Source: Candidatus Thioglobus autotrophicus (lineage in GTDB: Bacteria > Pseudomonadota > Gammaproteobacteria > PS1 > Pseudothioglobaceae). Taken from it: a stretch of DNA of 64,000 nucleotides. Within the stretch, counting starts at the first letter, position 1. Each line of letters begins with the position of its first letter. The DNA is taken from the NCBI GenBank assembly GCA_022448455.1, contig JAKUUR010000002.1, positions 10,241-74,240 of the forward strand, read 5' to 3'. The notes under the pieces are model-generated. The model ran no database searches, was not told where the DNA came from, and saw only the letters and a list, made by a program, of their open reading frames with translations. The translations under genes were made by a program, and so were the position numbers. This document shows positions 1 to 59,806 of this stretch, piece after piece.

Positions 1-906
1 CTTAATCAAACCACCGACCGCATGGTAGGCTGCATCCGAAAACTTACCATTCTTTCCTTCAAATATATTTTTACTGTTCGCAGTACTCGTTAAGCTTAAA
101 TTAATGTGAGCACCAGAACGCCAATCTCCAATTGTTGGTTTCGGCATAAAAGTAATAAACATGCCGTGATTTTTTGCAATCTCTTTGAGCAAAACCCTTA
201 AAAATACCAAACGATCAGCCATTTGAAGTACGTTTGTATAAGTAAAGTCGAGTTCAAACTGAGAATATCCTCCCTCGCAAACAACATCCTTCAAACCCCA
301 ACCTAATTCATTGAGAGTATCAATCATTTCTCCCAAAAATTCCATAGAGTCAATGCTATATTCCACATCATATCCAAAGGCTTGGCGGCGTGGTCGTAAA
401 CCTTCACCGGGTAAAGGGTCGTCATCAAAAGCTTTGACAGGTTGACCGTTTTCCCAACGCATTGCTATAAATTCGGGTTCAATACCACAAAAAGCTCTAT
501 ATCCAGCATCCTCAGCATTCTTCACAGCTCTTTTTAGTGTTTGACGGGGACATAAATTGTAAGGTTTACCCTCCCACCACAAATCAGAAAAAACCCAGGC
601 ACAGGTTTTATCCCAAGGACAGATCATCAAACTATCAAGATCTGGAACTGGAATCTGATCAGAGTCATTTGGCCCTAATTCTGGAACGAAAGAAACAGAA
701 TGAACAGCAAATTGAGGGCCTTTTCCAGCACACAACAACTCAAACTCAGATATGGGGATAGGTTTAGTTTTAGGAATGCCTAGAAGGTCTATCCAGCATG
801 AAAGAATATACTTAACACCTGCCTTTTCAAGTTTTGCTTTGGCTTCATTAACGCGCTTTTTATCTGGAAGTGCCTCTGACATTAATGTTGGATATATGTT
901 TGCCAT
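1..906 (-). CDS. Glutamine synthetase-family gamma-glutamyl-amine ligase, GmaS/GlnT-like clade (3' end runs off the window; absent from the ORF track)
   Basis: Manual translation from ATG at 906 (AGGAG RBS at about 913-917) is open to base 1: MANIYPTLMSEALPDKKRVNEAKAKLEKAGVKYILSCWIDLLGIPKTKP...PWDKTCAW...CPRQTLKR...FCGIEPEF...LGW...CEGGYSQFELDF...TFMPKP..DWRSGAHINLS. It has the GS E-x-E, E..E, FMPKP and H motifs. Confidence 0.9.
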   Translation of the reverse strand, partial: MANIYPTLMSEALPDKKRVNEAKAKLEKAGVKYILSCWIDLLGIPKTKPIPISEFELLCAGKGPQFAVHSVSFVPELGPNDSDQIPVPDLDSLMICPWDKTCAWVFSDLWWEGKPYNLCPRQTLKRAVKNAEDAGYRAFCGIEPEFIAMRWENGQPVKAFDDDPLPGEGLRPRRQAFGYDVEYSIDSMEFLGEMIDTLNELGWGLKDVVCEGGYSQFELDFTYTNVLQMADRLVFLRVLLKEIAKNHGMFITFMPKPTIGDWRSGAHINLSLTSTANSKNIFEGKNGKFSDAAYHAVGGLIK

Positions 907-922
907 TATTGACTCCTTTTGA

Positions 923-954
923 GGTATAGTTTGTTGAAAAAAAATCACTATACC
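923..954. promoter_or_regulatory. Inverted repeat in divergent intergenic region (putative operator)
   Basis: GGTATAGT (923-930), 16-nt spacer, ACTATACC (947-954), lying between the divergent GS-like and Rieske genes. Confidence 0.4.
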
Positions 955-1003
955 ATATTATTAATGATTATTTTATTTTGATAATAGCAAGAGATCTCTA
1001 CTG

Positions 1004-2374
1004 ATGAAAGATACTAAAGATAAAAATGAAACTGATTTGAAAGGTTTTGCTGGCCATAGTGTTACACTTTCAAACAAGATCGATGATGAAATAACAAGAA
1101 TTGGCCGAGGAACGCCAGCTGGTGAGTATCTTAGGCGCTACTGGCAACCAGTATTTATTTCTTCTGATTTAGCAGAACTCCCTGTTGCAATAAAAATACT
1201 TGGAGAAGAGCTTGTCTTGTTTCGAGATAAGAGCGGTCAGTTAGGACTAGTTCACAAACACTGTCCACATAGACAGGCCTCTCTGGAATTTGGAATTTGT
1301 CGTGAAAAAGGCATCCAATGCTGCTACCACGGCTGGCACTTTGATGTCGATGGCACATTGATCGAAGTTCCTGGTCAGCCAACCGCCACCGCAGATATTA
1401 TAAAAAATAAGGTGCGTCTAGGCGCTTATCCTACTTTCGAGTTTAAGGGGCTTATCTTTGCATATTTAGGCCCAATTGATGAAAAGCCAGAATTTCCAAT
1501 CTATGACAGCCTCGAATTTGAAGATATGGAAATGGTTCCTTACAAAGCACCCTTTAATTGTAACTGGCTTCAAGTACTCGATGCAATCGTTGATCCTATT
1601 CATACCGCCTTTCTTCACTCCAATATGAGTCGTCAACAATTTTCGGAAGGCTTTGGAGAGGTAGGTCAGATGGACTTCTTCGAGCGAGATAACTGGATAT
1701 TAGGCTGCAACACGCGCAGAGTTGGTGACAACGTTTGGTTTCGAATCAATGAAGTTGTTTTGCCAAATTTTACTCAAGCGGGAGCAGCCTTTTCTGCTGA
1801 TGGCACGAAACAAATCTTTTATGGGCGAAGCTCTTTCAGTCGTTGGGTAGTACCAATTGATGATGAAACGACCATCTGTTATGCTTGGGCTAATTTCGGT
1901 AAACGTGGTGATCCCCAAGCATATAACACGCCAGAAGGTCCAGAGCTGATTGAACAGGGTGAGGTTTTCGATCGACCATATGAAGAACGACAGAGGTTCC
2001 CTGCAGATAGAGAGGCTTGTGAAGGTATTGGTGCCATTAACATTCATAAAAATGAACAACTAGTGCGAAGTGACCGCGGCGTTGCTATGATGCGTCAACG
2101 AATAAGGAAGCAAATTAGAACCGTAATTGCTGGAAATCAACCCTACCTCGCCTCAAAAATTGCGGGAATGCCGATCCCCACTTATGGCGGTGACTCTGTT
2201 CTTTCTATCCCTAAAAATGAAGAAGGTGATGATGCATCTTTACTCAGTAAACTTGCACACGAGTTCGTTGACATTCAGTTTCAAGTTGATGGCAAATCGG
2301 AACAACAAAGAATTAAAATTGTAACTGCAGGATTGAAGGAAATGCAGTCAAGGCATAATTCAAAGATTAAATAA
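1004..2374 (+). CDS. Rieske non-heme iron oxygenase alpha subunit (phthalate 4,5-dioxygenase/LigXa-like family)
   Basis: N-terminal GRGTPAGEYLRRYWQP; Rieske ligands CPHR...CCYHGW; mononuclear iron motif DPIHTAFLH. Confidence 0.9.
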   Translation: MKDTKDKNETDLKGFAGHSVTLSNKIDDEITRIGRGTPAGEYLRRYWQPVFISSDLAELPVAIKILGEELVLFRDKSGQLGLVHKHCPHRQASLEFGICREKGIQCCYHGWHFDVDGTLIEVPGQPTATADIIKNKVRLGAYPTFEFKGLIFAYLGPIDEKPEFPIYDSLEFEDMEMVPYKAPFNCNWLQVLDAIVDPIHTAFLHSNMSRQQFSEGFGEVGQMDFFERDNWILGCNTRRVGDNVWFRINEVVLPNFTQAGAAFSADGTKQIFYGRSSFSRWVVPIDDETTICYAWANFGKRGDPQAYNTPEGPELIEQGEVFDRPYEERQRFPADREACEGIGAINIHKNEQLVRSDRGVAMMRQRIRKQIRTVIAGNQPYLASKIAGMPIPTYGGDSVLSIPKNEEGDDASLLSKLAHEFVDIQFQVDGKSEQQRIKIVTAGLKEMQSRHNSKIK

Positions 2375-2398
2375 ACAAATAAGGTAGGTATTGATAGC

Positions 2399-3427
2399 AT
2401 GCTAGAAGAGAGAAAAGTAAAAGTGCATTTCAAGAGCAATCATGCAGACCCTAAGTCCTTTCCTCCGACAATAGAAGGGGAATCTGTTTTCGCCTTTACG
2501 GAAGCAAGATTTAACGAAGCTCTTGAAAATTACCCCGACTTGAAAGGAAAAATTGAGCCAGTATTTGACTGGGATTTGGATAACTTTTATGAATCAATGA
2601 AAACAGCAGAGGTACTCGTATGTTGGGATTTTCCTACCGAAAACCTTGCCGAAATAGCACCTAATCTTCGTTGGATTCATATCACTGGTGCTGGTGTTGA
2701 GCACCTCTGCCCAATGGATTGGCTTCCTAATAATGTTTCTGTTGTCAACAATAGAGGTGTGCATTCAGAAAAAGCGGGTGAATTTGGCTTGATGAGTGTT
2801 CTTATGCTGCACACTCATATGCCACAGATCATTGCAAATCAACATAACAACCACTGGGAATCACTTTACTCTACTCTCATAAAGGGCAAAACTTTGTTGG
2901 TTATTGGCGTTGGAAATATTGGCTACTCTGTGACAAAAAAATGCAAAGCACTTGGAATGAATGTTATTGGTGTCAGTCGCCACGGAAAAACTTTAGAAGA
3001 TGTAGATGAAATGGTATCAGCTGATCAATTGGACGAAGTATTACCAAAAGCAGATTATATTTTTATGGCCACCCCAAATACCACTGAAACTCATAACTTA
3101 TTGGATGGAAGACGGCAATCATTAATGAAACCTGGCGTTGGTATTGTTAACGTAGGTCGCGCTGCTACAATAGACTATGTAGCCCTGGTTGATAACCTAA
3201 ATTCAGGTCATATTGGGGCTGCAATTATCGATGTATTTGACCCAGAACCGCTACCCAAAAACTCACCTTTATGGTCTGCTCCTAACCTCATGGTTATGCC
3301 ACATATTTCTGCAGATGATGGTGACACCTACATTCTACAGACTCTCGAATTGGTTCTGATGAATATGCGTCGCTACCTTGCCAACCAAGAACTCAAGAAC
3401 CTAGTGAGGCCTGATTTAGGCTACTAA
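2399..3427 (+). CDS. D-2-hydroxyacid dehydrogenase (NAD(P)-binding; glyoxylate/hydroxypyruvate reductase-like)
   Basis: GAGVEH, Rossmann GVGNIG, VNVGRA, DVFDPEPL and catalytic MPHIS motifs. Confidence 0.9.
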   Translation: MLEERKVKVHFKSNHADPKSFPPTIEGESVFAFTEARFNEALENYPDLKGKIEPVFDWDLDNFYESMKTAEVLVCWDFPTENLAEIAPNLRWIHITGAGVEHLCPMDWLPNNVSVVNNRGVHSEKAGEFGLMSVLMLHTHMPQIIANQHNNHWESLYSTLIKGKTLLVIGVGNIGYSVTKKCKALGMNVIGVSRHGKTLEDVDEMVSADQLDEVLPKADYIFMATPNTTETHNLLDGRRQSLMKPGVGIVNVGRAATIDYVALVDNLNSGHIGAAIIDVFDPEPLPKNSPLWSAPNLMVMPHISADDGDTYILQTLELVLMNMRRYLANQELKNLVRPDLGY

Positions 3428-3457
3428 CTGGATAGTCCTATCTTGTAAGCTTACTGC

Positions 3458-4591
3458 CTAGTGGTGATCTCTGAAATATTTGGCAGCACTAATAGAAGCA
3501 AGGGTGATACTTTCAGATGGATTTGCCAATGCCTGTTCAAGTGTTAACTGTTTTGAGACAACACTGAAGACTCTATCAATGTCGTGTTTATGAATTAGTC
3601 TTTCATCATCTTCAACCGAGCCAGCAATCACAAATACTAGACATCGATTCCTCTTAGCGCATTTAGCAACGCCAATAGGTGCTTTTCCTCTTATGCTTTG
3701 ACTATCAAAACGACCCTCACCTGTGATAACTAAATCAGCGCCTTTAATATGATGCTCAAAATCCATGGCATCCAAAACGATATTGATGCCACTTTTGAGT
3801 TCCGCATTTAAAAAAGCAAGAAAAGCTGAGCCTATTCCTCCAGCTGCGCCAGAACCTGGAACTTCTGAAACATCTTTTTTTATTGTGCTAGTTAAAATGT
3901 CAGAATAACGTGTCAGATTGGCGTCCAGTTGAGCAATCATTTCACTATTAGCGCCCTTTTGTGGCGCAAAAATCACTGAAGTGCCTTGTGGACCAAGCAG
4001 TGGATTATCAACATCGCACGCTACCTCAAAGCTGACGCCTTGAAGACGAGAGTCTATTGCACCAGAGTCAATACTACTAAGAGCACTTAAACTGCCACCA
4101 CCTCGGTTCAGTTGGTTTCCTGAAATATCAAGTAGACGAACACCTAGAGCTTGTAACAAACCTGCACCACCATCATTACAAGCACTTCCGCCTAAGCCAA
4201 CAATGATGTGATTAGCGCCCTCATTCACTGCTGCCAATATGAGCTCTCCTACCCCATGACTGGTTGCAATCATTGGGTTACGATTTTCTAAAGGCACCAA
4301 GCTCAAACCACAAGCTTTGGCAACCTCAATGACTGCTGTCTTCGAATTACCAAGCATACCCCAACTTGCATTAATGACTTCTCCCATTGGATCCATCACT
4401 TGCGCCGAAAAATAATGACCCTGGGTAGCAGATATAAGCGCTTCAGTTGTGCCTTCACCGCCATCTGCAACAGGCAATTTGAGTATTTCAGCGTTTGGGA
4501 AGACGTCAACAAATCCTGCTTCTATAGCATTGGCAACTTCACTGGCAGAAAGGCTTTCCTTGAATGAATCTGGTGCTATGACTATTCTCAT
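3458..4591 (-). CDS. glxK: Glycerate kinase (GlxK/GarK family)
   Basis: MRIVIAPDSFKESLSA, PVADGGEGT, GLGGSACNDGG, GAAGG and ITGEGRFDSQS motifs. Confidence 0.95.
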   Translation of the reverse strand: MRIVIAPDSFKESLSASEVANAIEAGFVDVFPNAEILKLPVADGGEGTTEALISATQGHYFSAQVMDPMGEVINASWGMLGNSKTAVIEVAKACGLSLVPLENRNPMIATSHGVGELILAAVNEGANHIIVGLGGSACNDGGAGLLQALGVRLLDISGNQLNRGGGSLSALSSIDSGAIDSRLQGVSFEVACDVDNPLLGPQGTSVIFAPQKGANSEMIAQLDANLTRYSDILTSTIKKDVSEVPGSGAAGGIGSAFLAFLNAELKSGINIVLDAMDFEHHIKGADLVITGEGRFDSQSIRGKAPIGVAKCAKRNRCLVFVIAGSVEDDERLIHKHDIDRVFSVVSKQLTLEQALANPSESITLASISAAKYFRDHH

Positions 4592-4630
4592 ATCAAAGTA
4601 TTCACTTAACTATCAAAATAGAATCTGCTT

Positions 4631-5035
4631 TTAATTTTTTGGCATGTCCTCTGGGTCAATGCCAGGAACAAAAGTAATTCCTGCTTGTTGTTTCCAGTCA
4701 TGCGGATAGGCGGCATAGAAAATGACACACTTTTCATCACATTCGTATGCGATTGAATTGTCCTTAGGTATATACAAAACATCTCCAGGCGTACAAACAT
4801 ATGACTCTCCATCACAGGTCAATCTAAAGGTGCCTTCCATGCAATAAATAATTTCATCACAAGTTAATTCCCAAGGTACTGAAACTTGATTTAAAAAATT
4901 GAGACCACCACACATAGTGTCACTGACAGCACTGGTGACAAAAGGCTTGATATAGGTTTGTCCTGGCTCTAAAGTATGTAAACGGTGCTCTATATCGCTA
5001 AATTTATAGAGTTTTGGTTTATTATCTTCCATCAT
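4631..5035 (-). CDS. EutQ-like cupin protein
   Basis: Cupin signature MCGG...W.LTCDEIIYCMEG...PGDVLYIPK...FYAAYP, resembling EutQ. Confidence 0.75.
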   Translation of the reverse strand: MMEDNKPKLYKFSDIEHRLHTLEPGQTYIKPFVTSAVSDTMCGGLNFLNQVSVPWELTCDEIIYCMEGTFRLTCDGESYVCTPGDVLYIPKDNSIAYECDEKCVIFYAAYPHDWKQQAGITFVPGIDPEDMPKN

Positions 5036-5040
5036 TTTCC

Positions 5041-5466
5041 TTATTGAGTTAAGTTAAGTTTTTCATTCAATTCAACAACATAGCCATCCGGATCTTCTAT
5101 AAATGCAAGGATACGGGTTCCAGCATTCATCGGTTTAGCTGGAGTGATAATCTTTGCTCCTTGAGCTTCGAGGTCTTCAACAGCTTTATAAACGTCAGGT
5201 GTTTCGATACAGATATGACCCCAGCCATTACCTTTGTCATAATGCTCTTTTTGATCCCAGTTATATGTCAACTCCAATGCGGGGAATTCAGTCTCGGGCC
5301 CATAACCTACAAATGCATTGGTGTAGCTACCGCCAGGATAATCAGTTCTTCTCAAGACTTGCATACCCAGAATGTCACAATAAAAATGGATTGATTTTTC
5401 TAGGTCTAGCACTCTTATCATTGTGTGAGCTAATCTATAGCCATTATCATTACTTTCAGTAGACAT
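5041..5466 (-). CDS. gloA: Lactoylglutathione lyase (glyoxalase I)
   Basis: HTMIRVLDLEKSIHFY, LELTYNW, GNGWGHICI and AFIEDPDGYVVEL motifs. Confidence 0.92.
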   Translation of the reverse strand: MSTESNDNGYRLAHTMIRVLDLEKSIHFYCDILGMQVLRRTDYPGGSYTNAFVGYGPETEFPALELTYNWDQKEHYDKGNGWGHICIETPDVYKAVEDLEAQGAKIITPAKPMNAGTRILAFIEDPDGYVVELNEKLNLTQ

Positions 5467-5476
5467 ATGTCCTCCT

Positions 5477-6589
5477 TTAAATGTTTTTTGATGTTTTCAT
5501 TACAGCCTCTGCGATCATTGTTTGGAATGCACGAACGCTATCTTCCCAATGAGGCGACAGAAAGCCACCTTCCTTTGCTACTGGTGAGGCACGACCGAGT
5601 TGCATTCTTTCACAAATTGCATGGTCTTCTTTATGCACATCCCACCATAATTTTTTCATTGCATCAACTTCTTCTTTTGATAGAGTTTGTCCCTCAGTCG
5701 TATAAATAACTCTTTTCTGCTGAGTGTGCCCAGAGTCAACTGGAACATTCAAGTAGACCCCAATCTGGTCAGGGAAATATCGACCAATAATAAAGTTAGG
5801 AAATAGCGTGAGGTATCTCGAGCTGACAGAAAGGCTGCCTTTCACTTTGTCTTCTTCATCCAGTTCAATAGCGCTTCCTAGACAAACATCATCAACGATA
5901 GTGTAGTGGTCTTTGAGTGGTTGATTTGTTGTCGTACGATGAACAAACTGAACATGGTAAGGTTCAATAAAGTTTTCCATTAGAAACTTCCAATTGGTTG
6001 AAATTTCACCAAAATCAAGTGTCGCAACTGGTTTGACTTGTTCAAAGTTGATATCATCAAAATACTTAATCAAGGGTGCTGAATACTCCTCAAATTCTGG
6101 CGCATCGGCACTTAGGTTAACGAAAATCCAGTCATGCCAGATAGCCAGTCTTACTGGCTTTAGGCCATGTTTAGATAACTCAAAACCCTCAACCTGATGT
6201 TCTTCTCCAGCAAAAAAAGGAGTTGCGCAAAGCTCACCATCCAAATTATAAGTCCAAGAATGATACGGGCAACGCAACTTAGTTCCCACATTTTTTGGTT
6301 CATCAACCAATTTTAGGCAACGGTGTCTACAGGCATTATGAAAGGCGTTGATTTCACCAAGCTTGTTCTTAATAAGAATCAAGGGTTGACCGGCAACCGA
6401 ACATGTAACAACATCACCAGGCTTTTTGAGTTCATGAACAAATCCCACAAAAACCCAATTCTGAATAAATACGGTTTCGGATTCAATTTTCCAGAACTCA
6501 GAATTATTATAAGCTACAGCAGGAAGCCCATGAGCAGGTACGCTGTTCTTCAAAAAATTTGATAATAAAATGTCTATTCTTTCATTCAT
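5477..6589 (-). CDS. Rieske oxygenase alpha subunit, choline monooxygenase/CntA-like (quaternary-amine group)
   Basis: CRHR...CPYHSWTY Rieske motif; NWKFLMENFIEPYHVQFVH with Glu at the bridging position; EDHAICERMQ.G iron ligand. Confidence 0.85.
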   Translation of the reverse strand: MNERIDILLSNFLKNSVPAHGLPAVAYNNSEFWKIESETVFIQNWVFVGFVHELKKPGDVVTCSVAGQPLILIKNKLGEINAFHNACRHRCLKLVDEPKNVGTKLRCPYHSWTYNLDGELCATPFFAGEEHQVEGFELSKHGLKPVRLAIWHDWIFVNLSADAPEFEEYSAPLIKYFDDINFEQVKPVATLDFGEISTNWKFLMENFIEPYHVQFVHRTTTNQPLKDHYTIVDDVCLGSAIELDEEDKVKGSLSVSSRYLTLFPNFIIGRYFPDQIGVYLNVPVDSGHTQQKRVIYTTEGQTLSKEEVDAMKKLWWDVHKEDHAICERMQLGRASPVAKEGGFLSPHWEDSVRAFQTMIAEAVMKTSKNI

Positions 6590-6604
6590 AATGACACCTT
6601 AAAT

Positions 6605-7471
6605 TTAATCATATTTTTTACCCCATCGCTCAAGAGAAATTGTAGCTAACAAAATTATTAGCATGCCTAGCCACTGAGAATAGCCGAGTACATTTTGGAG
6701 TAGCATAACGCCAAGAATGATAGTAAAAACTGGCTCCATGTACATTACATTAGACGTGCGAACAGGACCAATTTTTGCAATAGAGTGGAAGAAAAAGTAA
6801 AAACCGCCACTCATACCTATAGCTGAAGCAATACCCCACATTAACATCGGTGCAGTCACTGATGCTATGGGTGCTGCAGTAGTCATAAAATAAATTAATA
6901 CAAAAACCGTTGCAGGTAACACCATAATATATTTAATTAAGCCCCATCCTGGCGTCACACTCTCGTGACGAGATAGAATGTTAACAAACACCTGTGCAAC
7001 TGATGCAAACAAACCCCAAAACACACCCCACAAATTCCAGTCACTAGTATCACTCTGAACCAGCACCCATATGCCCAGCAAAGAAGCCAATAGAGCCAAA
7101 ACCGATAACACATCAATTGACCTACTTTTCATTAATGAATTAGCGAAAAAAGTAATGATTGGAAACGTGTAAATTACAACCACAGCCAAACTTAAAGGAA
7201 TCAGTTTGATGGAATACATGTATGAGCCAACAAATATTGCTTGAAATATACTAATTAACACTAACCTTATACGAGCTTCCTTAGTTCTTTGTTTTTTGGG
7301 TGACTTATCTAAAACGCTAGACAAGGATAGGGTGAAAATATAGCGCACACTAAGCAACAAGAAAATGCTACCTCCTACTTTGTAAAAGTACGGAACAGCT
7401 GCCGCTGCAAGCGAGAAGCTAAAAGCTGATATTATGGCTGCAAGGACATTTGTAGAGAATTTATTGCTCAT
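6605..7471 (-). CDS. DMT/EamA family transporter
   Basis: About 10 hydrophobic segments in two EamA-like repeats; YTFPI and MEPVFTIILG motifs. Confidence 0.85.
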   Translation of the reverse strand: MSNKFSTNVLAAIISAFSFSLAAAAVPYFYKVGGSIFLLLSVRYIFTLSLSSVLDKSPKKQRTKEARIRLVLISIFQAIFVGSYMYSIKLIPLSLAVVVIYTFPIITFFANSLMKSRSIDVLSVLALLASLLGIWVLVQSDTSDWNLWGVFWGLFASVAQVFVNILSRHESVTPGWGLIKYIMVLPATVFVLIYFMTTAAPIASVTAPMLMWGIASAIGMSGGFYFFFHSIAKIGPVRTSNVMYMEPVFTIILGVMLLQNVLGYSQWLGMLIILLATISLERWGKKYD

Positions 7472-7532
7472 TGAAAATACAAATTTGCCTTGAAATGAAA
7501 GCCTGCATTTTATAACCCATTAAGAGTTATCG

Positions 7533-8258
7533 TCAAGAAGTAAATTTAATTGAAAGCTGTTGCCTTAAATAGCCTGGCTTGTTTGTTGTAATTGAAGTCG
7601 CCCCCCACTTCAATAATTGTTCAGCAGTTTGTATGTCATCAATAGCCCATGAGTGGTACTCAAAACCAGCTTTGGTGATACTGTTGACAAGTTCTTGAGA
7701 GTTTTTATTGTTTGAGCCAAGACCGTCGGCCTTGATATCTCTTAAAAAATCTAGCAACTCGTGGCTACTGACTGGCTCATTCACGTCATATAACCAGTGC
7801 GCTTTAATATGAGGCGCAATTGATTTAAAGGCTTTAATTACATGATTATCAAATGCTATGATTGAAATTTGTTCCTTTCGAAGATTCGAATTTACTATCC
7901 AATTGATCAGAGTAGGAACGATTTCAGGACCACATTTAACCTCGATAAAAATACCCTTATTGTTAGGTATTGTTTTAAAGACTTCGCTAAGTAAAGGGAT
8001 TGATTGTGGGGCTAAATCACCTTTATAGTATGTAGATGCATCGAGTTTACTTAATTCAGCATAAGTGCTTTCTGCAACAATCAGTTTTTCATCACAGGTG
8101 CGAGAGGTATCCTCATCATGAATGCAGACAATCTGCTCATCTTTGGTAAGACGAAAATCACCCTCAATCGCATCAGCGTTCTGCGACCAAGCTAAGCGAA
8201 ATGCCTCAAGAGTATTTTCTGGTGCATCATCGGAAGCACCTCTGTGAGCAACAATCAT
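7533..8258 (-). CDS. Glycerophosphodiester phosphodiesterase (cytoplasmic, UgpQ-like)
   Basis: AHRGAS..APENTL.AF, EGDFRLTKD...VCIHD, IEVK and ITTNKP motifs; no signal peptide. Confidence 0.92.
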   Translation of the reverse strand: MIVAHRGASDDAPENTLEAFRLAWSQNADAIEGDFRLTKDEQIVCIHDEDTSRTCDEKLIVAESTYAELSKLDASTYYKGDLAPQSIPLLSEVFKTIPNNKGIFIEVKCGPEIVPTLINWIVNSNLRKEQISIIAFDNHVIKAFKSIAPHIKAHWLYDVNEPVSSHELLDFLRDIKADGLGSNNKNSQELVNSITKAGFEYHSWAIDDIQTAEQLLKWGATSITTNKPGYLRQQLSIKFTS

Positions 8259-8360
8259 TTATCAATCTCTATAAATACTTTAATTATAAACTCTGTGATT
8301 TATAGTTGATTCTTAACGCGCTCTTAAACTACTTAGGCAATTTGCCTGATGTTTGATTTT

Positions 8361-9809
8361 TTAAAACAAAGAAATAGCCAATTCCATCCAGTAGCTTGGC
8401 ATTAAACCAAGAACTAGAATCAAAGCTCCATTGATGGAAAGAATAATGCGCATGTCCAAGGGGGCTGTTACCGTAATTTCTTTTTCAGCATCATCAAAGT
8501 ACATTGTTTTGATGATTTGGAGGTAGTAATATGCACTGATAACTGCAAATACAACTGCAGCAACCGCTAAATAAATATAGCCTGCTGAAACGACTTGCTG
8601 AAGAATAAACAGCTTAGAATAGAAGCCAATGAATGGAGGTACACCAGCCATTGAAAGCATAACAAATAGCATTAACAAAGCAAACCAAGGTGAGTGTTTG
8701 CTCAAACCTCTAAAGTCAACAATTTGATCTGCTTCAAATCCTTGTTTATTCAAAGCAATAATAATGCCAAAAGCTGTCAAACTCATTAATACATAAGCCA
8801 AAACATAGAAGGTAGCAGCGCCATAGCCTTCAACGACACCTGTTATAAAACCAAGCAAAATAAAACCGATATGGGAAATAGTTGAGTACGCCAACAAGCG
8901 TTTTATATTTGTCTGCATCAAAGCAACTAATGAACCTAGGCCGATAGAAAGAATTGCAAGAATTATGAACAAATCTGCCCAATAAGCTTGCAGTCCACCA
9001 AGACCATCGATTAGTAGGCGCACCAACATAGCAGTTGCAGCAAACTTCGGCACAGTGGATAAAAACATTGTGACTGAAGTTGGTGCACCCTGATAAACAT
9101 CTGGTACCCACATATGAAATGGAACAGCACCGAATTTGAAGGCAATACCAATTACTAAGAACACTAACCCAAAGTTGAGAATAAGTACTTGCTCAGAGTT
9201 CAAGTTTGCACCCGTTGCAAATGCCGCAATTTGGCCAATATCTAGACTACCAGTAATACCGTAAATCATCGACATGCCATAAAGTAGCAACCCTGATGCG
9301 ATTGCACCAAGCACGAAATACTTTAACGCTGCTTCTACCGCGACAGCTCGATCTCTAGCGATCGCTATAAGTGTGTACAAAGACAATGACATGATCTCTA
9401 AACCTAAGTAAATCGTCAGCATACTGTGGGCAGAAACCATAACCATCATGCCAAGCACTGAGAGCAGGGATAGAATAAAGTATTCACCTTTCAATAAATT
9501 ATGTGCTCTTAAATAATGTCGAGAATAAACCAAAGCCACTATGCTAAAGACCATCATAAAGACTTTGAAATAAGAGCCGATAGTGTCAAGTACATAAGTG
9601 CCATCAAAAATAACAGCCGATTCACCAATTAGATTAAATGCAAAGTAACCGGTGATAGCTAGTGTGGATTGAGTTAAGTAATAAGTAAGATTTTGGAAGC
9701 GCTCAGAGACAAACAAGTCAAGTAGTAATATTAATGCAATAGCAGCTATCATAAACAACTCTGGAAGAGCAAAAAATAAGTCAGCAGTATTGAATTGATA
9801 ATCCATCAT
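8361..9809 (-). CDS. nuoN: NADH-quinone oxidoreductase subunit N
   Basis: EAALKYFVLGA, FKFGAVPFHMWVPDVYQGAP, KRLLAYSTISH motifs; last gene of the nuo operon. Confidence 0.97.
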   Translation of the reverse strand: MMDYQFNTADLFFALPELFMIAAIALILLLDLFVSERFQNLTYYLTQSTLAITGYFAFNLIGESAVIFDGTYVLDTIGSYFKVFMMVFSIVALVYSRHYLRAHNLLKGEYFILSLLSVLGMMVMVSAHSMLTIYLGLEIMSLSLYTLIAIARDRAVAVEAALKYFVLGAIASGLLLYGMSMIYGITGSLDIGQIAAFATGANLNSEQVLILNFGLVFLVIGIAFKFGAVPFHMWVPDVYQGAPTSVTMFLSTVPKFAATAMLVRLLIDGLGGLQAYWADLFIILAILSIGLGSLVALMQTNIKRLLAYSTISHIGFILLGFITGVVEGYGAATFYVLAYVLMSLTAFGIIIALNKQGFEADQIVDFRGLSKHSPWFALLMLFVMLSMAGVPPFIGFYSKLFILQQVVSAGYIYLAVAAVVFAVISAYYYLQIIKTMYFDDAEKEITVTAPLDMRIILSINGALILVLGLMPSYWMELAISLF

Positions 9810-15844: not shown

Positions 15845-18079
15845 CTAACACTGTCTCGGCAGATGAGTGTGAACAAACACACAACCTTCCGCTACTGATT
15901 CGTTAATATTGACTGGAACACCCTTATACAAGTCACCTTCTGAGAGTTCTAATAATTTTGCGGTTGCCTTGCAAACCGAAGCCTCACTTATCTGTCCAAT
16001 CCGTGTCTGTTGTAATGAAGATGCATGACGAACAACTACATCACTAGCATAGGGTGTGTATTGCCAAACAGTAGTAATATTCGGCATTTTAGAATTGCTA
16101 ATAGGAACTTCGATCTCGGAGGTATTAGGGGTTAAAGATAATGCTTTATCAGCTATCTGGGATGAATCCGTAAAGTCAAAACCTTGGAGATTGAGCAAGT
16201 CCGCTAAAACTTTAATTACCTTCCACCCTGGTTTGGATTCTCCAGCACTCTTAACCGAGGCGCTATAGGACTGAGCAATATTGTCTACATTAATGTGCGT
16301 ACCAGAAGTTTCATAGAAACTCGCAATTGGTAAAATTACGTTTGCACAATTCAAAACTGATTCATCATCAAAACTATTCATGGCAACAACAAATGCATCA
16401 TCATGACTCAAATGTTCAATTGCATTTTCTGAGTCAATACAGTCAAAAGTCGGGTAAACATCGAACAAAACAAATGCAGTAAAATCAGATGAAAGGATTT
16501 GTAGCGCATTTTTACCGTTTTCAGGCTTAAAATTTACCCTTTCTGCAGAATGTGCATTGCCCGTTAAACTTGCATTTAGAGTTTTTGCTTCTGAAGCTTT
16601 AGCGATTTCAGAAACCAGTGTAGCGACTTGATCCGAGCATTTATTACCATTCACATGCTCTCCAAGTACAACTACTGGATGCTCGGCATTTAATAGCGCA
16701 TTAGCTATATCTATATGTGTTTGATGAACACTGACAGAATTTAAATAATCAGGCAAAGTTTGTGAATTTTTATCAAGTAACGCTTTTAAGACACCTGAAA
16801 GAGTAGCTACAGTATTTTGTGGGGATGTCAATACAGAATGACTAATGCGATAATTGAAATCGAAAGCCTTCGCATTTATAGTTGAAACGCTTGCACCATT
16901 TAAAGTCGCCTTTCTAATACGATGATTGATCATTGGCTGCTCTAAGCGTAAATATGAATTTACAATAAGTGCGTGATCAATGGTTTCTAATTCAGTTAAA
17001 GAAATATTTGACTCTAATACCTTTGCGTTACTCGGATTAGCAGCATCTAGCCGATAATCAAGGTTATCTGACCCTAGGCCTCTTGTAAATTTTTGTAGCA
17101 AATATAACTCTTCAAGAGTTGCGTTTTTCGATGCAAGAGTGCCAATTTGTGACCCCTCTTTAGCGTGTTTTTTTATGCCGTTTGCTGCAAAATCTAGTGC
17201 ATCATCCCATGAAGTATCTTGCCATTCACCTTTAATTTTGATCTTAGGAATCAAGATACGATTGTCACTGTTAAGCCCTTGGTATGAAAAACGGTCTCTG
17301 TCTGAAATCCAAGTCTCATTGATGTTTTCATTATCTCTGGCAACTACACGCTTGACTTTACTTTCGTGTGTTTGAGTAAAGATATTTGAACCCACTAGGT
17401 CATGACGTGCAATGGTCTGAATCGAGTTCATCTGCCAAGATCTAACTCCATAACGGAAAGGCTTAGAAGTTAATGCTCCGACCGGACATACATCAATCAT
17501 GTTGCCCGAAAGTTCTGACTGAATCCCTTCTGATAAAAATGGTTCAATTTTCAAATCTTCACTTCGACCCGTAGCACCCATTTCAACTATGCCTGCAACT
17601 TCTGCACCAAATCGAACACAACGTGTACAGTGAATACAACGCGTCATATCTGTTTGAATCAGGGCGCCTATCTCCTTATCATCAACAATACGCTTGCCTT
17701 CAGTAAACCTTGATATGTCAGAACCAAATTCCATAGCCACATCTTGTAACTCACATTCACCACCTTGATCACAAATTGGACAATCCAGTGGGTGGTTGAT
17801 TAACAAAAACTCCATAACAGCCTTTTGCGCAGTTTTGGCTTTTTCATTTTTGGTATGAACTTTCATCCCAAAAGAGCTTTGTGTTGAGCATGCAGGTTGA
17901 GGGTTTGGATTACCCTCTATATCCACCAAACACATTCTGCAGTTTGCTGCGACAGATAGTTTTTTGTGGTAACAGAATCGAGGAATGTCGATACCCTCTC
18001 TATCCGCAATTGAAATAACAGTCTCACCTGAGTATCCATGTACAACTTTACCGTCGATTTCGATTTCAATATCAACCAT
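15845..18079 (-). CDS. nuoG: NADH-quinone oxidoreductase subunit G (start revised to ATG 18079; track gives 18199)
   Basis: [41 protein letters not shown] motifs. [11 protein letters not shown] start overlaps the nuoF stop by 8 bp; the extra 40 codons lie inside nuoF. Confidence 0.95.
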
Positions 18080-19346
18080 CGTTTTCCACCATACTTTTCC
18101 CGTGCTTGATGTAGTACTCAAACTCTTCTCTAAAATGTGTAATAAAACTCTCAACAGGCATCGCTGCGGCATCACCCAATGCGCAGATCGTATTACCAAT
18201 TATCTTATCCTGCACAGAAAGTAAAAGCTTTAAGTCTTCACTCTTACCCTGACCATCCATAATGCGTTTTAAGACTCGATACATCCAGCCTGTACCTTCT
18301 CTGCATGGGGTACACTGGCCACAAGACTCATCGTAATAAAAATGCGCTAAGCGCGTCAAAGCCTTCACCATGCAGGTTGTATCATCCATCACAATAACTG
18401 AGCCAGCACCAAGCATTGACCCTGCCTTTTCAATGGAATCATAATCCATCGTCATTTTCATCGCCTCTGCTGCAGGAATTACTGGGGTAGATGAACCTCC
18501 AGGAATTACCCCTTTAAGAGTTCTACCTTCCCTTAAACCGCCAGCCAATTCTAATAAATCACTAAAAGGTGTTCCCATTGGGATTTCAAAATTAGCGGGA
18601 TTCTTGACATTACCAGTTACCGAAAAACACTTTGTACCACCTGAATTTACCACACCTAGATCAGCAAACCATTGGCCGCCTCGAGAAAGAATTTCAGGTA
18701 CTGATGCAAAACTCTCGGTGTTATTGATGGTTGTTGGTTTGCCATATAGTCCTACATTTGCTGGATACGGCGGCTTAAATCTTGGTAGTCCTTTTTTACC
18801 CTCAAGCGACTCCAATAATGCAGTCTCCTCACCACAAATATAAGCGCCTGCCCCCAGATGAGAATAAAGATCAAAACACACCTTACTGCCTTTAATGTTA
18901 GTACCCAACAAACCAGCATCATAAGCCTCTTTCAAGGCTTCTTCAAAACGGTAATAAGGCTCCATGAACTCACCACGAATATAGTTATAACCAACTGTTG
19001 CATTCATCACATAGCCTGCAATTGCCATCCCTTCAATGACTGAGTGTGGATTAAATCTTAAAATGTCACGATCATGACAAGTGCCTGGCTCGCCTTCGTC
19101 AGAATTACAAACTACGTACTTCTGCCCCTCTTGATTGCGCGGCATAAAACTCCACTTTAAGCCCGTTGGAAAACCCGCACCACCGCGCCCCCTTAGACCT
19201 GAAATCTTTAACTCTTCAAGAATTTTCTCAGGTGATAGCTCGCCATGAAGAATTTTGTGCCAAACTTTATAGCCACCCATGGTTTCATAAGTCGCAAGAC
19301 TTGAAGGGTTATCTTTATCTATACTTTTCAAACAAACGTTATTCAC
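18072..19346 (-). CDS. nuoF: NADH-quinone oxidoreductase subunit F
   Basis: [54 protein letters not shown] motifs. Confidence 0.98.

Positions 19347-28312: not shown

Positions 28313-28316
<4 letters not shown>
27672..28316 (-). CDS. yggS: PLP homeostasis protein (YggS/PLPBP)
   Basis: LIAVSK, FGENYLQE, WHFIGPIQSNK, LSMGMSAD, IRVGADIFG motifs. Confidence 0.96.
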
Positions 28317-30044
<1,728 letters not shown>

Positions 30045-33210: not shown

Positions 33211-33660
33211 ATGAATAACTTCACACCAATTAGTGCCTTAGCAGGCGGAATAATGATAGGACTGTCAGTAGTGCTTTATTTCTACACTACAGGTAGACTG
33301 GCAGGAGTCAGTGGTATAGTCGAAAACGCTATAACTAAAAAAGCCAATAGATTATCTAATATCTTTTTCCTATTAGGACTAGTACTAGGGCCGTTACTGT
33401 ATGGCATCACTAAAGAACCTATAGCTATTGCATTTACCCTACCTGATCATTCCTTTGCTATAACTGACTCATACCCATTAATCATTATAGGTGGACTTTT
33501 AGTAGGTCTTGGAACACGACTTGGTGGTGGCTGTACATCTGGTCATGGTATATGCGGCATTGGCAGACTATCGAGTAGCTCTATAATAGCTACAGTAGTC
33601 TTTGTTGGCGTTGGAATGCTTACAGTTACAATTCTTCAACAATCTGGGATTTACTTATGA
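33211..33660 (+). CDS. YeeE/YedE family half-transporter (PmpA/B-like; sulfur compound transport)
   Basis: GRLAGVSGI and GGLLVGLGTRLGGGCTSGHGICG motifs. Confidence 0.88.
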   Translation: MNNFTPISALAGGIMIGLSVVLYFYTTGRLAGVSGIVENAITKKANRLSNIFFLLGLVLGPLLYGITKEPIAIAFTLPDHSFAITDSYPLIIIGGLLVGLGTRLGGGCTSGHGICGIGRLSSSSIIATVVFVGVGMLTVTILQQSGIYL

Positions 33661-34121
33661 ATGATAAAGTAATCTCATTATTATGCGGAGTTATATTTGG
33701 CTTAGGACTCGTTGTATCAGGCATGACAAACCCATCAAAGGTAATCGGCTTTTTAAGTATTACACATAACTGGGACGCTTCTTTAATATTTGTTATGGGC
33801 GGCGCTATATTAATTTTCGCACCATTCTTTTACTTCTTAAAGAATAGAGAAGCGTCAGCACTAGGTTTTGAGATTGAATTACCTTCTAAGCAAGAGGTAG
33901 ATAGAAGATTAGTAATCGGTTCGGCTTTGTTTGGAGTGGGTTGGGGTCTTGTAGGATTATGTCCCGGTCCGTCAATATCCGCCTTAACCAGTCCGGGAAT
34001 ATCTGGCTTAGCTGTCTTCGATCCTATTGTAATAATATTTTTATTATCTATGGCAATAGGTATAGTAGTTAATAAAAACTTACTGCAGAAAACAATTCAG
34101 AATAAAAAATTAAATGTATGA
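33657..34121 (+). CDS. YeeE/YedE family half-transporter (DUF6691-type partner)
   Basis: FGLGLVVSGM.NPSKVIGFL...WDASL.FVM and LFGVGWGLVGLCPGP motifs. Confidence 0.86.
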   Translation: MNDKVISLLCGVIFGLGLVVSGMTNPSKVIGFLSITHNWDASLIFVMGGAILIFAPFFYFLKNREASALGFEIELPSKQEVDRRLVIGSALFGVGWGLVGLCPGPSISALTSPGISGLAVFDPIVIIFLLSMAIGIVVNKNLLQKTIQNKKLNV

Positions 34122-34136
34122 TTTTTCGGAGGCTGT

Positions 34137-34361
34137 ATGCCACATAAAACTTTAGATATGTGTGGGTATAACTGTCCTATGCCTATTTTAAAAACAAAGC
34201 AGGCACTTGCAAAAATGGACATTAAAGAGACGATTAAAGTGATATGTACCGACAAAGGCTCAAAAAAAGATTTTGTTGCTTTTTGTAATCAGTTGGGACA
34301 TACATTAATCTCTCAAGAAGATGAAGGTGACAAGTTCATTTTTTATATCGAAAAAAACTAA
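34137..34361 (+). CDS. tusA: TusA-family sulfurtransferase
   Basis: LDMCGYNCPMPILKTK (CPxP persulfide site); 74 aa. Confidence 0.9.
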   Translation: MPHKTLDMCGYNCPMPILKTKQALAKMDIKETIKVICTDKGSKKDFVAFCNQLGHTLISQEDEGDKFIFYIEKN

Positions 34362-34375
34362 CAAACTGGAGATTT

Positions 34376-34891
34376 ATGTCTGAATCTAATGAAATGACAC
34401 TTATTGCCTCTAAGGGCACACTTGACTGGGCCTATCCTCCACTAATTCTGGCCTCTACTGGTATTGCAATGGGAAAAGAGGTGTCTGTCTTTTGTACTTT
34501 TTATGGTTTAAATCTTTTACTTAAAGACTTATCACATCTTCGAATATCGCCTCAAGGAAATCCAGATATGCCTATGAAAATGCCGTTTGGACCTAAGTGG
34601 TTTCAAGGAATTAATTTTGGACCAAAAATTCCTAACATTATGTGGAACATTCCTGGTTTAGAGTTATTTGCAACCGCAATGATGAAAAAAACCATGAAGA
34701 ATAACGGCATCGCTACCATTGAGGAGTTGAGAGAGATTTGCATCGAAATGGGTGTTAAATTCATCGCCTGCGAGATGACAATTGGCATGTTCGGATTTGC
34801 AAGAGAGGACTTTATTGAGGGTATAGAATTTGCCGGTGCTGCCACCTATCTTGATGTCGCTCATACCTCCAATCAGGACTTATTTATTTAG
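34376..34891 (+). CDS. DsrE/DsrF-like (DsrE2-type) sulfur-trafficking protein
   Basis: SKGTLDWAYPPLILAST, FCTFYGL, G.A..EELRE.C...GVKFIACEMT, GAATYL motifs. Confidence 0.85.
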   Translation: MSESNEMTLIASKGTLDWAYPPLILASTGIAMGKEVSVFCTFYGLNLLLKDLSHLRISPQGNPDMPMKMPFGPKWFQGINFGPKIPNIMWNIPGLELFATAMMKKTMKNNGIATIEELREICIEMGVKFIACEMTIGMFGFAREDFIEGIEFAGAATYLDVAHTSNQDLFI

Positions 34892-53715: not shown

Positions 53716-54825
53716 CTAAAAGCGTGAGCCCATGTAGCTCACCTGGTACTGCGCCTGAGACAACCATTCTGGGTTTACCTCTAGACCCCAACCCGGTTTA
53801 TGATCCATTAATAGCCGACCTTCAACTATTTTGAAGCTTGGCGAAAATATATTGTCTTGCCAGGGGTAATAATCTAAACCCTCAATTGAAAACTCTAAGT
53901 ACTTACCTGCGTTAGGGATAGAGCCCATAATGTGTGCAGAAAACAATGTCACCAAGGATAAGTTAGCCGAATGTAGAGTTACAGGTAAGTGGGCTTGTTT
54001 GGCTAACTTAGCAACCTCTAAGGTGCGAGTAACACCTCCCATATAACAGACATCGGGCTGTACAATATTCACCACCTGGGTATCTATCATGTGCTTCCAG
54101 ATACGCATATCGTTATCCTGCTCTCCACCACTTATATCAATATTTAATGCATCTTTAACTTGACGGGTCCAGTCAGGTTCCCAGTATGGACAAGGTTCCT
54201 CGAAATGGCTGACACCATAATCTTGTAACATGTGTCCAACCTCAATAGCTTTAGCTGGCGTGTACGCGCTATTGGCGTCCACCAGTAGTGCTACATCATC
54301 ACCTAAAACCTTGCGCACTTGTTTCACAATAGCCTCTGTACGACCAGGCCATTGATCCAAGTCATGACCACATTCTCTCCCTACACGAAATTTGAAGGCT
54401 TTATAACCATACCTCTCTTTGAGATCTAGAAAACGTTCAGCTTCAGCTTCAGGGGTGATTTCACGCTGCATACTCGAAGCATACACTGGCACAGAGTCAG
54501 TATTACCACCCAAAAGTTGACACACACTCTTGTTAGCTTTCTTGGCGTGAATATCCCAAAGCGCAGTATCTAAGCCACACAAACCACGATAAAGATAGGT
54601 TCCAGGGAACTTATGTTCCCGCTCTAACACCTCTCGGTTTAAATCAGTTATGTCGAGACCACTCCAGCCTAGTACATGAGGAGCCACTTGTCGGTGTACT
54701 ACTTGAGCACTTATGTCGGCATTGTAGGCACTAGTTTGTCCCCAACCCTCATCACCTTCGTCGGTACGCACTCGGACCAAACCAATGTATTCGTTGGTAA
54801 AGGTTTCTATGCTAATAATTTTCAT
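53716..54825 (-). CDS. Enolase superfamily enzyme, mandelate racemase subgroup
   Basis: K.FKFRVG; metal ligands VDAN, FEEP, GGEQ; QPD...H acid/base dyad; YLEF; PGWG motifs. Confidence 0.9.
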   Translation of the reverse strand: MKIISIETFTNEYIGLVRVRTDEGDEGWGQTSAYNADISAQVVHRQVAPHVLGWSGLDITDLNREVLEREHKFPGTYLYRGLCGLDTALWDIHAKKANKSVCQLLGGNTDSVPVYASSMQREITPEAEAERFLDLKERYGYKAFKFRVGRECGHDLDQWPGRTEAIVKQVRKVLGDDVALLVDANSAYTPAKAIEVGHMLQDYGVSHFEEPCPYWEPDWTRQVKDALNIDISGGEQDNDMRIWKHMIDTQVVNIVQPDVCYMGGVTRTLEVAKLAKQAHLPVTLHSANLSLVTLFSAHIMGSIPNAGKYLEFSIEGLDYYPWQDNIFSPSFKIVEGRLLMDHKPGWGLEVNPEWLSQAQYQVSYMGSRF

Positions 54826-54850
54826 AATTAATCTCGGTTTAGCTAACTCT

Positions 54851-56482: not shown

Positions 56483-56622
56483 GTTTAAGTCAAATAATGA
56501 CTATATAAAATTCACACTATTGTATAAGTAATCTTTAATCATTGCTTAAATATTTTTTTAGCATTATTCACTTACAAAAAAAATTACATTTGTTCAGTGT
56601 GAAAATAAGATAAACTAAGATG

Positions 56623-56645
56623 AGCCCTCACGTGTGAGGGTTTAA
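56623..56645 (+). promoter_or_regulatory. GC-rich hairpin with T-rich tail in the leader of the ABC substrate-binding gene
   Basis: AG CCCTCA CGTG TGAGGG TT followed by TTTAATGTTTTT, ending about 30 nt upstream of ATG 56671 (RBS AGGAG). Confidence 0.45.
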
Positions 56646-56670
56646 TGTTTTTAAAATCTTAGGAGAAAAA

Positions 56671-57687: not shown

Positions 57688-57701
57688 GCTAGATTTAATA
57701 T

Positions 57702-57733
57702 AAAAAAAAGAGCTCATTCGTGAGCTCTTTTTT
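57702..57733 (+). terminator. Intrinsic terminator/stabiliser hairpin between SBP and permease
   Basis: AAAAAA GAGCTCA TTCG TGAGCTC TTTTTT (UUCG tetraloop, U-tract). Confidence 0.85.
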
Positions 57734-57754
57734 CTTATTTTCTGAATTAGAATC

Positions 57755-58759: not shown

Positions 58760-58769
58760 CCTTTAATCA

Positions 58770-59801: not shown

Positions 59802-59806
59802 GTTAG

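Follow-up and report, generated by a model that had tools for sequence, protein, structure and literature searches.

The stretch of DNA analysed here, a window of 64,000 nucleotides from Candidatus Thioglobus autotrophicus, contains at positions 3458-7471 five co-oriented genes that encode an EamA/DMT permease, a Rieske non-haem-iron oxygenase, a glyoxalase I of the VOC family, an EutQ-like cupin and a glycerate kinase (GK). The conserved unit at this locus is a three-gene cassette formed by the Rieske, glyoxalase I and EutQ-like cupin genes. The cassette belongs to a larger module with a GmaS-like ligase, a MetX-like hydrolase and an AsnC/Lrp regulator. This module often adds gmaS and mgsABC-like genes and, in some lineages, a pair formed by a second Rieske oxygenase and a D-isomer-specific 2-hydroxyacid dehydrogenase (2HADH). 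The permease, the kinase and an adjoining glycerophosphodiester phosphodiesterase (GDPD) are SUP05-specific neighbours and not part of the conserved module. By analogy with known enzymes, the cassette may carry out the oxidative cleavage of a small methylated ammonium compound, yielding an amine for GmaS-type ligases and a 2-oxoaldehyde for glyoxalase I, a tentative reading whose probability falls a little short of even. An original prediction, made from the sequence alone, had taken all five genes as a new amine-cleaving module. Its uncharacterised CntA-like core stands, while the roles given to the transporter and the kinase were overstated.

A homologue scan with one genome per species retrieved 407 relatives of the Rieske protein. 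Of these, the 80 best loci (58-96% identity) were compared by tblastn and clustering of open reading frames (ORF); they come from SUP05, SAR11, roseobacters and Hyphomicrobiales, and the Rieske gene is present in all of them by construction. Enough sequence was available for the adjacent genes in 75 loci and for flanks of 8 kb in 49, divided into 15 SUP05 loci and 34 outside SUP05; the counts of more distant neighbours refer to these flanks. In 73 of the 75 loci the VOC gene comes immediately after the Rieske gene, and in 65 the cupin gene follows the VOC gene. The order Rieske-VOC-cupin recurs, with gaps of a few bases, in Gammaproteobacteria and in several alphaproteobacterial orders, and one Paracoccaceae sub-lineage has only a divergent ORF at the cupin position. 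A GS-like ligase is found in 44/49 loci (29/34 outside SUP05). Outside SUP05, the AsnC/Lrp regulator is present in 25/34 loci, the MetX-like hydrolase in 24/34 and an mgsABC-like trio (GATase, GXGXG and FMN glutamate-synthase domains) in 14/34. The permease and the GDPD gene occur in 15/15 SUP05 loci and the kinase in 11/15, whereas none of the three is found in the 34 other loci. The co-occurrence of all five genes in other genomes, on which the original prediction had staked itself, therefore fails for the permease and the kinase. The prediction had the three-gene core among its partners and missed the GmaS-like ligase, the MetX-like hydrolase, AsnC, the gmaS and mgsABC-like genes and the second Rieske-2HADH pair.

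In the usual SUP05 order the nuo operon is followed by GDPD, DMT and GK, then by 2HADH and the second Rieske gene on the opposite strand. Subsequently come Rieske, VOC, cupin, AsnC, GS472 (a GmaS-like gamma-glutamyl ligase), mgsABC, gmaS and the hydrolase. The lineage of the window has the three-gene cassette moved to between DMT and GK. Beside a Rieske relative of 49% identity the AsnC, GS472 and hydrolase genes are still present, divergent from Rieske-VOC. At 37-38% Rieske identity the larger module dissolves, and the neighbours are DMGDH with an FMN oxidoreductase, MetE-like/BHMT-like genes, or TauD/HalD genes. The DMGDH, FMN-oxidoreductase and BHMT/MetE-like genes among them are genes of methyl-ammonium metabolism.

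The five minus-strand ORF were recovered at exactly the coordinates first given for them. The first gene of the local operon encodes the EamA/DMT permease (7471-6605; PF00892). The cassette core follows with the Rieske oxygenase, an alpha subunit only, of 370 amino acids (6589-5477; Pfam Rieske and Ring_hydroxyl_A), the glyoxalase I, a lactoylglutathione lyase of the short Ni-type by sequence (5466-5041; TIGR00068), and the EutQ-like cupin of 134 amino acids (5035-4631; PF06249). The last gene encodes the glycerate kinase (4591-3458; Pfam Gly_kinase; TIGR00045, 505 bits). The intergenic gaps are 15, 10, 5 and 39 bp in this order, and the Pfam and NCBIfam domain assignments agree with the earlier ones for all five proteins. 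Metatranscriptome contigs such as 5777-6858 and 6114-7037 cross the DMT/Rieske junction, and others bridge the Rieske/VOC (5426-6224) and cupin/GK (4323-4763) junctions. The DMT gene is immediately preceded by a promoter-like site (sigma-70-like, TTGACG-18-TAAAAT, minus strand, 7507-7536), which is a pattern match only, at 10/12 positions of a consensus scan; no terminator-like site was found between the five genes. Given the junction-crossing contigs, the promoter-like site upstream and the lack of an internal terminator-like site, the five genes most likely form one transcript in this strain.

Transcript depth was taken from assembled contigs in which strains are mixed and is indicative only. 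It is among the highest over GS472 (1-900) and over the cupin/VOC stretch (4800-5400) in 6/8 runs; the Rieske gene takes a middle position, and GK, DMT and GDPD have the lowest values, GDPD the very lowest. In this grouping of the genes the pattern agrees with synteny. The Rieske gene is also found in many marine metatranscriptomes. The Rieske protein is 92-96% identical to those of loci from single-cell genomes that bear the labels gamma proteobacterium SCGC AAA007-O20, AB-629-P17 and Candidatus Thioglobus. The host is a SUP05/Arctic96BD-19-type gammaproteobacterium and the locus a composite operon.

Group V Rieske oxygenases act on quaternary ammonium compounds and form two clades (Quareshy et al., PMC7948474). 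Clade Va, with CntA, the choline monooxygenases and OxyBAC, hydroxylates a chain carbon. Its members have an aromatic residue two positions before the bridging glutamate (Tyr203 in CntA, Phe in OxyBAC) that binds the ammonium group by a pi-cation contact, and the Y203F mutant of CntA is active (PMC7948474). The bridging glutamate of CntA is E205, just before the first iron-binding histidine. Clade Vb, with GbcA/BmoA and Stc2, demethylates its substrates and has Asn at the diagnostic position (PMC7948474).

In the window protein, the Rieske cluster ligands C87/H89/C107/H110 (CXH-X17-CXXH), the bridging Glu209 and the mononuclear iron ligands H212/H217/D322 are invariant among 32 homologues, so that the 2-His-1-carboxylate site is present. 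The motif ENFIEPYH, which the original prediction had pointed out together with its bridging Glu, stands at residues 205-212. It aligns with the CntA motif ECYH, and D322 aligns with the ED of CntA. Phe207, two positions before Glu209, is kept by at least 90% of the family sequences, and Phe or Tyr occupies this position in 236/256 retrieved relatives that carry the motif. Because Glu209 and the aromatic Phe207 match the published definition, the protein is classed by sequence as a member of clade Va. Metagenomes commonly contain the cassette, with 1,205 member sequences in the nearest protein cluster alone.

The best PDB sequence matches of the Rieske protein are 3n0q, Stc2 and CntA, at about 100-109 bits, with alignments that fall mostly in the Rieske domain. 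The same three proteins are the top Foldseek matches of its AlphaFold model (pLDDT 64.7, below 50 across residues 208-261), a search used for fold-level ranking only. The assignment as a CntA-type quaternary-ammonium oxygenase is borne out by these matches together with Glu209 and Phe207. CntA/YeaW (6y8j) is likewise alpha-only, of about 370 amino acids, with a bridging Glu and a 2-His-1-Asp iron site; it has Tyr203 where the window protein has Phe207. On the other hand, CntA scores 98.5 bits with about 22% identity in Foldseek, and a PDB search with only the catalytic domain gives nothing significant (CntA, E=1.2). CntA is also accompanied by the CntB reductase and malic-semialdehyde-handling genes, whereas the partners here are glyoxalase I, the cupin and a GmaS-like ligase. 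GbcA is the closest NCBIfam model, but NF058607 gives 160.5 bits against an equivalog cut-off of 670 and only residues 11-219 align. GbcA/BmoA and Stc2, the best NCBIfam, PDB and Foldseek matches, share the bridging Glu and the link to methyl-ammonium metabolism. They differ in the diagnostic Asn, where the window protein has Phe, and in a GbcB/Stc3-like partner, which it lacks. Plant choline monooxygenase (Tyr) and OxyBAC (Phe), compared by published signature only, share the Va signature, and the cassette context of glyoxalase I and GmaS-like ligase fits neither betaine synthesis nor benzalkonium degradation. As had been supposed, the protein is by sequence not an orthologue of GbcA, CntA or any characterised clade Va member.

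The second protein of the cassette is a sequence-typical glyoxalase I, as first named. It scores 138.8 bits with TIGR00068 (cut-off 120) and 125 bits with E. coli GlxI (1f9z), and its residues H14/E65/H84/E132 align with the four metal ligands of the latter, H5, E56, H74 and E122. It matches GloA of the GloA/GloB system in passing the cut-off and having the four ligands. It differs in being embedded in an oxygenase operon with no linked GloB (metallo-beta-lactamase) gene; the MetX-like alpha/beta hydrolase is linked to the cassette instead. Since the protein is a genuine glyoxalase I by all these marks, a 2-oxoaldehyde product is a reasonable expectation.

The cupin matches PF06249 with 64 bits over profile positions 50-151 only, and scores 56 with the PRK15457 equivalog, whose cut-off is 193. 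No eut (ethanolamine-utilisation) genes are found nearby. Its PDB matches are the EutQ structures 4axo and 2pyt, and the usual HxH metal motif is missing. Sequence identity of the cupin between Gamma- and Alphaproteobacteria is 84-95%, whereas the Rieske protein reaches about 60-65%, and across 55 cupin sequences 49% of the positions do not vary. This unusual conservation may come from a protein-protein or cofactor constraint.

The proposed steps are drawn from what CntA, OxyBAC and choline monooxygenase catalyse and from the class of substrates that glyoxalase I accepts. The cell would first import a small ammonium compound, quaternary or methylated, a task for which the EamA permease may serve in SUP05, whereas Amt, BCCT, TRAP or MFS transporters lie nearby elsewhere. 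The Rieske protein, a monooxygenase of the homotrimer type, would grip the ammonium head through a pi-cation contact with Phe207 and hydroxylate the chain carbon adjacent to the nitrogen, both as in clade Va enzymes. The resulting hemiaminal would collapse to a methylated amine and a reactive carbonyl. As glyoxalase I is the invariable next gene, the carbonyl probably is, or becomes, a 2-oxoaldehyde such as glyoxal, methylglyoxal or a relative. Glyoxalase I would then form an S-(2-hydroxyacyl)glutathione thioester, to be hydrolysed, possibly, by the MetX-like hydrolase, and the D-2-hydroxyacid could subsequently be oxidised by 2HADH. The amine nitrogen would pass to glutamate or glutamine via GS472, GmaS and the mgsABC-like (N-methylglutamate) genes. 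A 2-oxoaldehyde product requires a beta-oxo substrate or an extra oxidation step. Candidates of the beta-oxo type are betaine aldehyde, which would give glyoxal, and trimethylaminoacetone or aminoacetone-type compounds, which would give methylglyoxal. A more specific version, in which the oxygenase acts as an aerobic C-N lyase on a quaternary amine of the beta-oxo or choline type, frees trimethylamine or a different methylated amine and leaves glyoxal or methylglyoxal to glyoxalase I, is unlikely in that exact form.

Several points weigh against the cleavage of a methylated ammonium compound by the cassette. The catalytic domain is too divergent for residue-level inference, and any such inference about the pocket was set aside because of the lack of a significant solved relative of that domain and the weak AlphaFold model. 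No reductase or ferredoxin gene is conserved beside the Rieske gene among the neighbour families found in at least 8 of the 80 loci, unlike in cntAB and gbcAB. CntA-type cleavage of choline or carnitine would give 2-hydroxyaldehydes, which glyoxalase I refuses, whence the need, noted above, for a beta-oxo substrate or a further oxidation. GmaS-type ligases cannot use tertiary amines, trimethylamine among them, so the link to the ligase may be indirect. It could also be that this glyoxalase I is the single housekeeping copy of the genome, and the roles given to the cupin and the MetX-like hydrolase are guesses. At 28313-29176, adjoining an amino-acid kinase gene, the window encodes a PyrK-like FAD/NAD(P)-binding reductase whose C-terminal domain is of the [2Fe-2S] type. 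This reductase might donate electrons generically to the orphan Rieske oxygenases, though it is 22 kb distant.

The ligase gene suggests a different order of events. In the window GS472 is a fragment of 302 N-terminal codons (906-1, minus strand, by tblastn), cut by the left edge, with 84% identity to a 472-amino-acid homologue and divergent from the second Rieske gene. The full GS472 of a 94%-identical locus (L005) reaches 373 bits with TIGR03105, where the cut-off is 470, and among PDB entries it matches the glutamate-methylamine ligase 9qur best (237 bits). After it in that locus come a genuine GmaS (666 bits with TIGR03105) and a MetX-like alpha/beta hydrolase (425 bits with NF005757). The window's lineage, as seen in this locus, keeps gmaS and has lost the mgsABC-like genes; the window ends before them. 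The GmaS-like ligase might first link glutamate to a small primary amine, be it aminoacetone, methylamine or an alkanolamine, and the Rieske protein might then hydroxylate the N-alkyl carbon, giving a carbinolamide that falls apart into glutamine and an aldehyde, so that nitrogen enters directly as glutamine. The tight linkage of the GS-like gene to the cassette even at 49% Rieske identity and the similar transcript depth of GS472 and the cassette speak for this order. So do known systems that couple a GS-like ligase to an amine-acting oxygenase or dehydrogenase, as here: such a ligase feeds a Rieske oxygenase in the degradation of aniline and 1-naphthylamine (PMC11335346), and ethanolamine is gamma-glutamylated in a marine roseobacter (PMC10132767). 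However, Phe207 of the Va signature implies a cationic, typically quaternary, head group, which an amide does not have. The gamma-glutamylation systems also have a GATase-type hydrolase and the aniline type, in addition, a two-subunit Rieske dioxygenase with its own reductase, whereas no GATase-type gamma-glutamyl hydrolase, Rieske beta subunit or reductase is found at the cassette loci. Glutamylation ahead of oxygenation is unlikely. The roseobacter ethanolamine pathway was rejected as a match to the module, as it has dehydrogenases and no oxygenase (PMC10132767).

The original prediction as a whole had the DMT permease import a trimethylammonium or alkanolamine compound and the Rieske protein cleave it. 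The aldehyde was then led through glyoxalase I, perhaps with 2HADH, to glycerate, and through the kinase into glycolysis, for example from hydroxypyruvaldehyde via S-glyceroylglutathione to D-glycerate. The co-transcription of the five genes in this strain fits such a route, as does the kinase in the locus in the 11 SUP05 genomes, convergent with 2HADH in both SUP05 arrangements, and glyoxalase I accepts hydroxypyruvaldehyde. The kinase is, however, missing from the window position in three loci of 94-96% identity (L002-L004), where 2HADH comes directly after the cupin. In two runs (X26, X30) RNA contigs connect 3431 with 4633 without the kinase; at the X30 junction 88 other letters separate the ends of the 2HADH and cupin genes. 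In other SUP05 genomes the kinase lies between DMT and 2HADH, and its transcript depth is 3-25 times below that of the cupin/VOC stretch in 7/8 runs. The kinase gene is a strain-level presence/absence polymorphism, a co-transcribed passenger here. The EamA gene near the SAR11 cassette is unrelated to the permease of the window (E=1.6). The routing of the aldehyde to glycerate is without comparative support because the kinase is confined to SUP05, variable between strains and placed elsewhere in other SUP05 genomes, and the full scheme is unlikely, with the permease and kinase absent from all the loci outside SUP05.

A further alternative starts from the methylated-amine genes. The cassette stands beside gmaS and mgsABC-like genes in 24/49 well-flanked loci, and yet no mgd-like gene family recurs within 8 kb of it in the neighbour clusters of the 80 loci. 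Large ORF suspected of being Mgd or Tdm were discarded as a shadow ORF (c722), DNA polymerase I (c300), a helicase (c219) and an unrelated secreted protein (c436). GS472 is a paralogue of GmaS, and the described N-methylglutamate pathway (GmaS, MgsABC, MgdABCD) differs from these loci, which show no mgdABCD, in lacking the Rieske, glyoxalase and cupin genes. The Rieske protein might accordingly be an O2-dependent N-demethylase that fills the methylated-amine gap in SAR11 and SUP05, in place of DmmDABC or the N-methylglutamate dehydrogenase MgdABCD. SAR11 lacks Dmm, there are Thioglobus-like tmm and tdm genes (PMC5520151), and GbcA, the closest NCBIfam model, is a demethylase. Demethylation is nevertheless decidedly unlikely, as the family has Phe where clade Vb has Asn and the product would be formaldehyde, which leaves the near-universal glyoxalase I partner unexplained. 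The dimethylamine monooxygenase DmmABC, the characterised enzyme for that step, was not retained as a match; its paper makes no mention of a Rieske centre. Dmm is of the haem/PAS (HODM) oxidative N-demethylase type.

Members of the family bear the automatic JGI name 'choline monooxygenase', and choline monooxygenase belongs to clade Va. The protein could in this case produce betaine aldehyde for glycine-betaine synthesis amid unrelated nitrogen-metabolism genes. A choline-dehydrogenase-like GMC gene and an OpuAC-type ABC transporter are present in the window, 47 kb off. The name is only an automatic label, however; no betaine-aldehyde dehydrogenase gene recurs in the cassette neighbourhoods, and a shared pathway is indicated by how tightly glyoxalase I and the cupin are conserved immediately after the oxygenase gene, so that this role is quite improbable. 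The cluster with the GMC gene (53716-60595) encodes an enolase-superfamily dehydratase-like protein, the GMC oxidoreductase, an OpuAC-type betaine/choline ABC transporter and an SDR. The oxidoreductase scores 619 bits with PRK02106, below the BetA equivalog cut-off, and no betaine-aldehyde dehydrogenase is in view at the cluster, which may supply a quaternary-amine aldehyde.

Finally, although streamlined genomes do pack unrelated genes into operons and the kinase and permease are incidental here, the recurrence of the Rieske-VOC-cupin order across Gammaproteobacteria and several alphaproteobacterial orders makes it very unlikely that a housekeeping glyoxalase I and unrelated genes are adjacent by chance.

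A full-text literature search found no description of this gene combination, which the original prediction had likewise not recognised as a characterised pathway, and a paper on SAR11 nitrogen limitation does not mention the neighbouring loci. The homarine operon homABCDER was rejected as a match, as its proteins are different and it has no Rieske gene. No characterised counterpart was found, nor any precedent for the partnership of a clade Va Rieske oxygenase with glyoxalase I, an EutQ-like cupin and a GmaS-like ligase.

The cassette is carried, and transcribed in situ, by highly abundant ocean bacteria (SUP05/Arctic96BD-19, SAR11 and roseobacters). It lies inside a methylated-amine gene neighbourhood, where the SAR11 pathway has a known gap, and methylated amines are climate-relevant aerosol precursors. 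A clade Va oxygenase that feeds glyoxalase I, if real, would mean a new substrate and carbon route in the marine cycling of dissolved organic nitrogen. Were trimethylamine released, the cassette would represent an unknown oxic source of methylated amines in SAR11, SUP05 and roseobacters, wired to GmaS-type nitrogen assimilation. The five-gene guess has become a defined and clonable gene set, with culturable carriers (Ruegeria lacuscaerulensis, Hoeflea sp. TYP-13 and Roseibium sp. SCP14) available for genetics.

On the plus strand, left of the kinase, lie the second Rieske oxygenase (1004-2374, 456 amino acids; Pfam Rieske and a weak LigXa_C match) and 2HADH (2399-3427; PF02826, 169 bits). The latter is real and convergent with the kinase, as originally described. 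The second Rieske protein is phthalate-dioxygenase/LigXa-like (PDB 7fhr, 146 bits), with the motifs CPH..CCYH and D197-PIH-TAFLH and with Asp, not Glu, as the bridging residue. It is always paired with 2HADH. The pair is present in 13/15 SUP05 loci and adjoins the cassette also in some Hyphomicrobiales, in a SAR11 single-cell genome and in a bin labelled Marinimicrobia.

The transporter genes around the cassette vary between lineages. In the SAR11 single-cell genomes L042 and L055 the cassette lies directly downstream of one or two Amt (ammonium/methylammonium transporter) genes; in L055 umuDC-like genes come after it. A BCCT transporter gene lies inside two roseobacter-group (Rhodobacterales) clusters, in a Ruegeria (L051) and a Paracoccaceae member (L079), and TRAP or MFS transporter genes are near the cassette in other lineages. 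No riboswitch was found at 1-9000 of the window. In six related loci the only match of the riboswitch scan is a SAM-V element upstream of a SAR11 BHMT-like gene (2873-2938 of the single-cell genome L046), about 7 kb from the cassette, and an unrelated EamA permease and an MFS transporter lie between that gene and the cassette.

The GDPD gene (8258-7533, minus strand; PF03009, 121 bits) sits between the nuo operon, upstream of it, and the DMT gene. One transcript contig (X26) skips 621 bases within it (7516-8138), a sign that part of the population may carry a deletion variant of the gene. In the nuo operon, the ORF at 15845-18199 (minus strand) and 18072-19346, with TTG and GTG starts, overlap by 128 bases, and the mechanical start of the former is probably too far upstream. 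DUF6691 and DsrE/DsrF-like genes, for proteins of the sulfur-transfer type, are found at 33657-34891 and are in keeping with a genome of the SUP05 clade.

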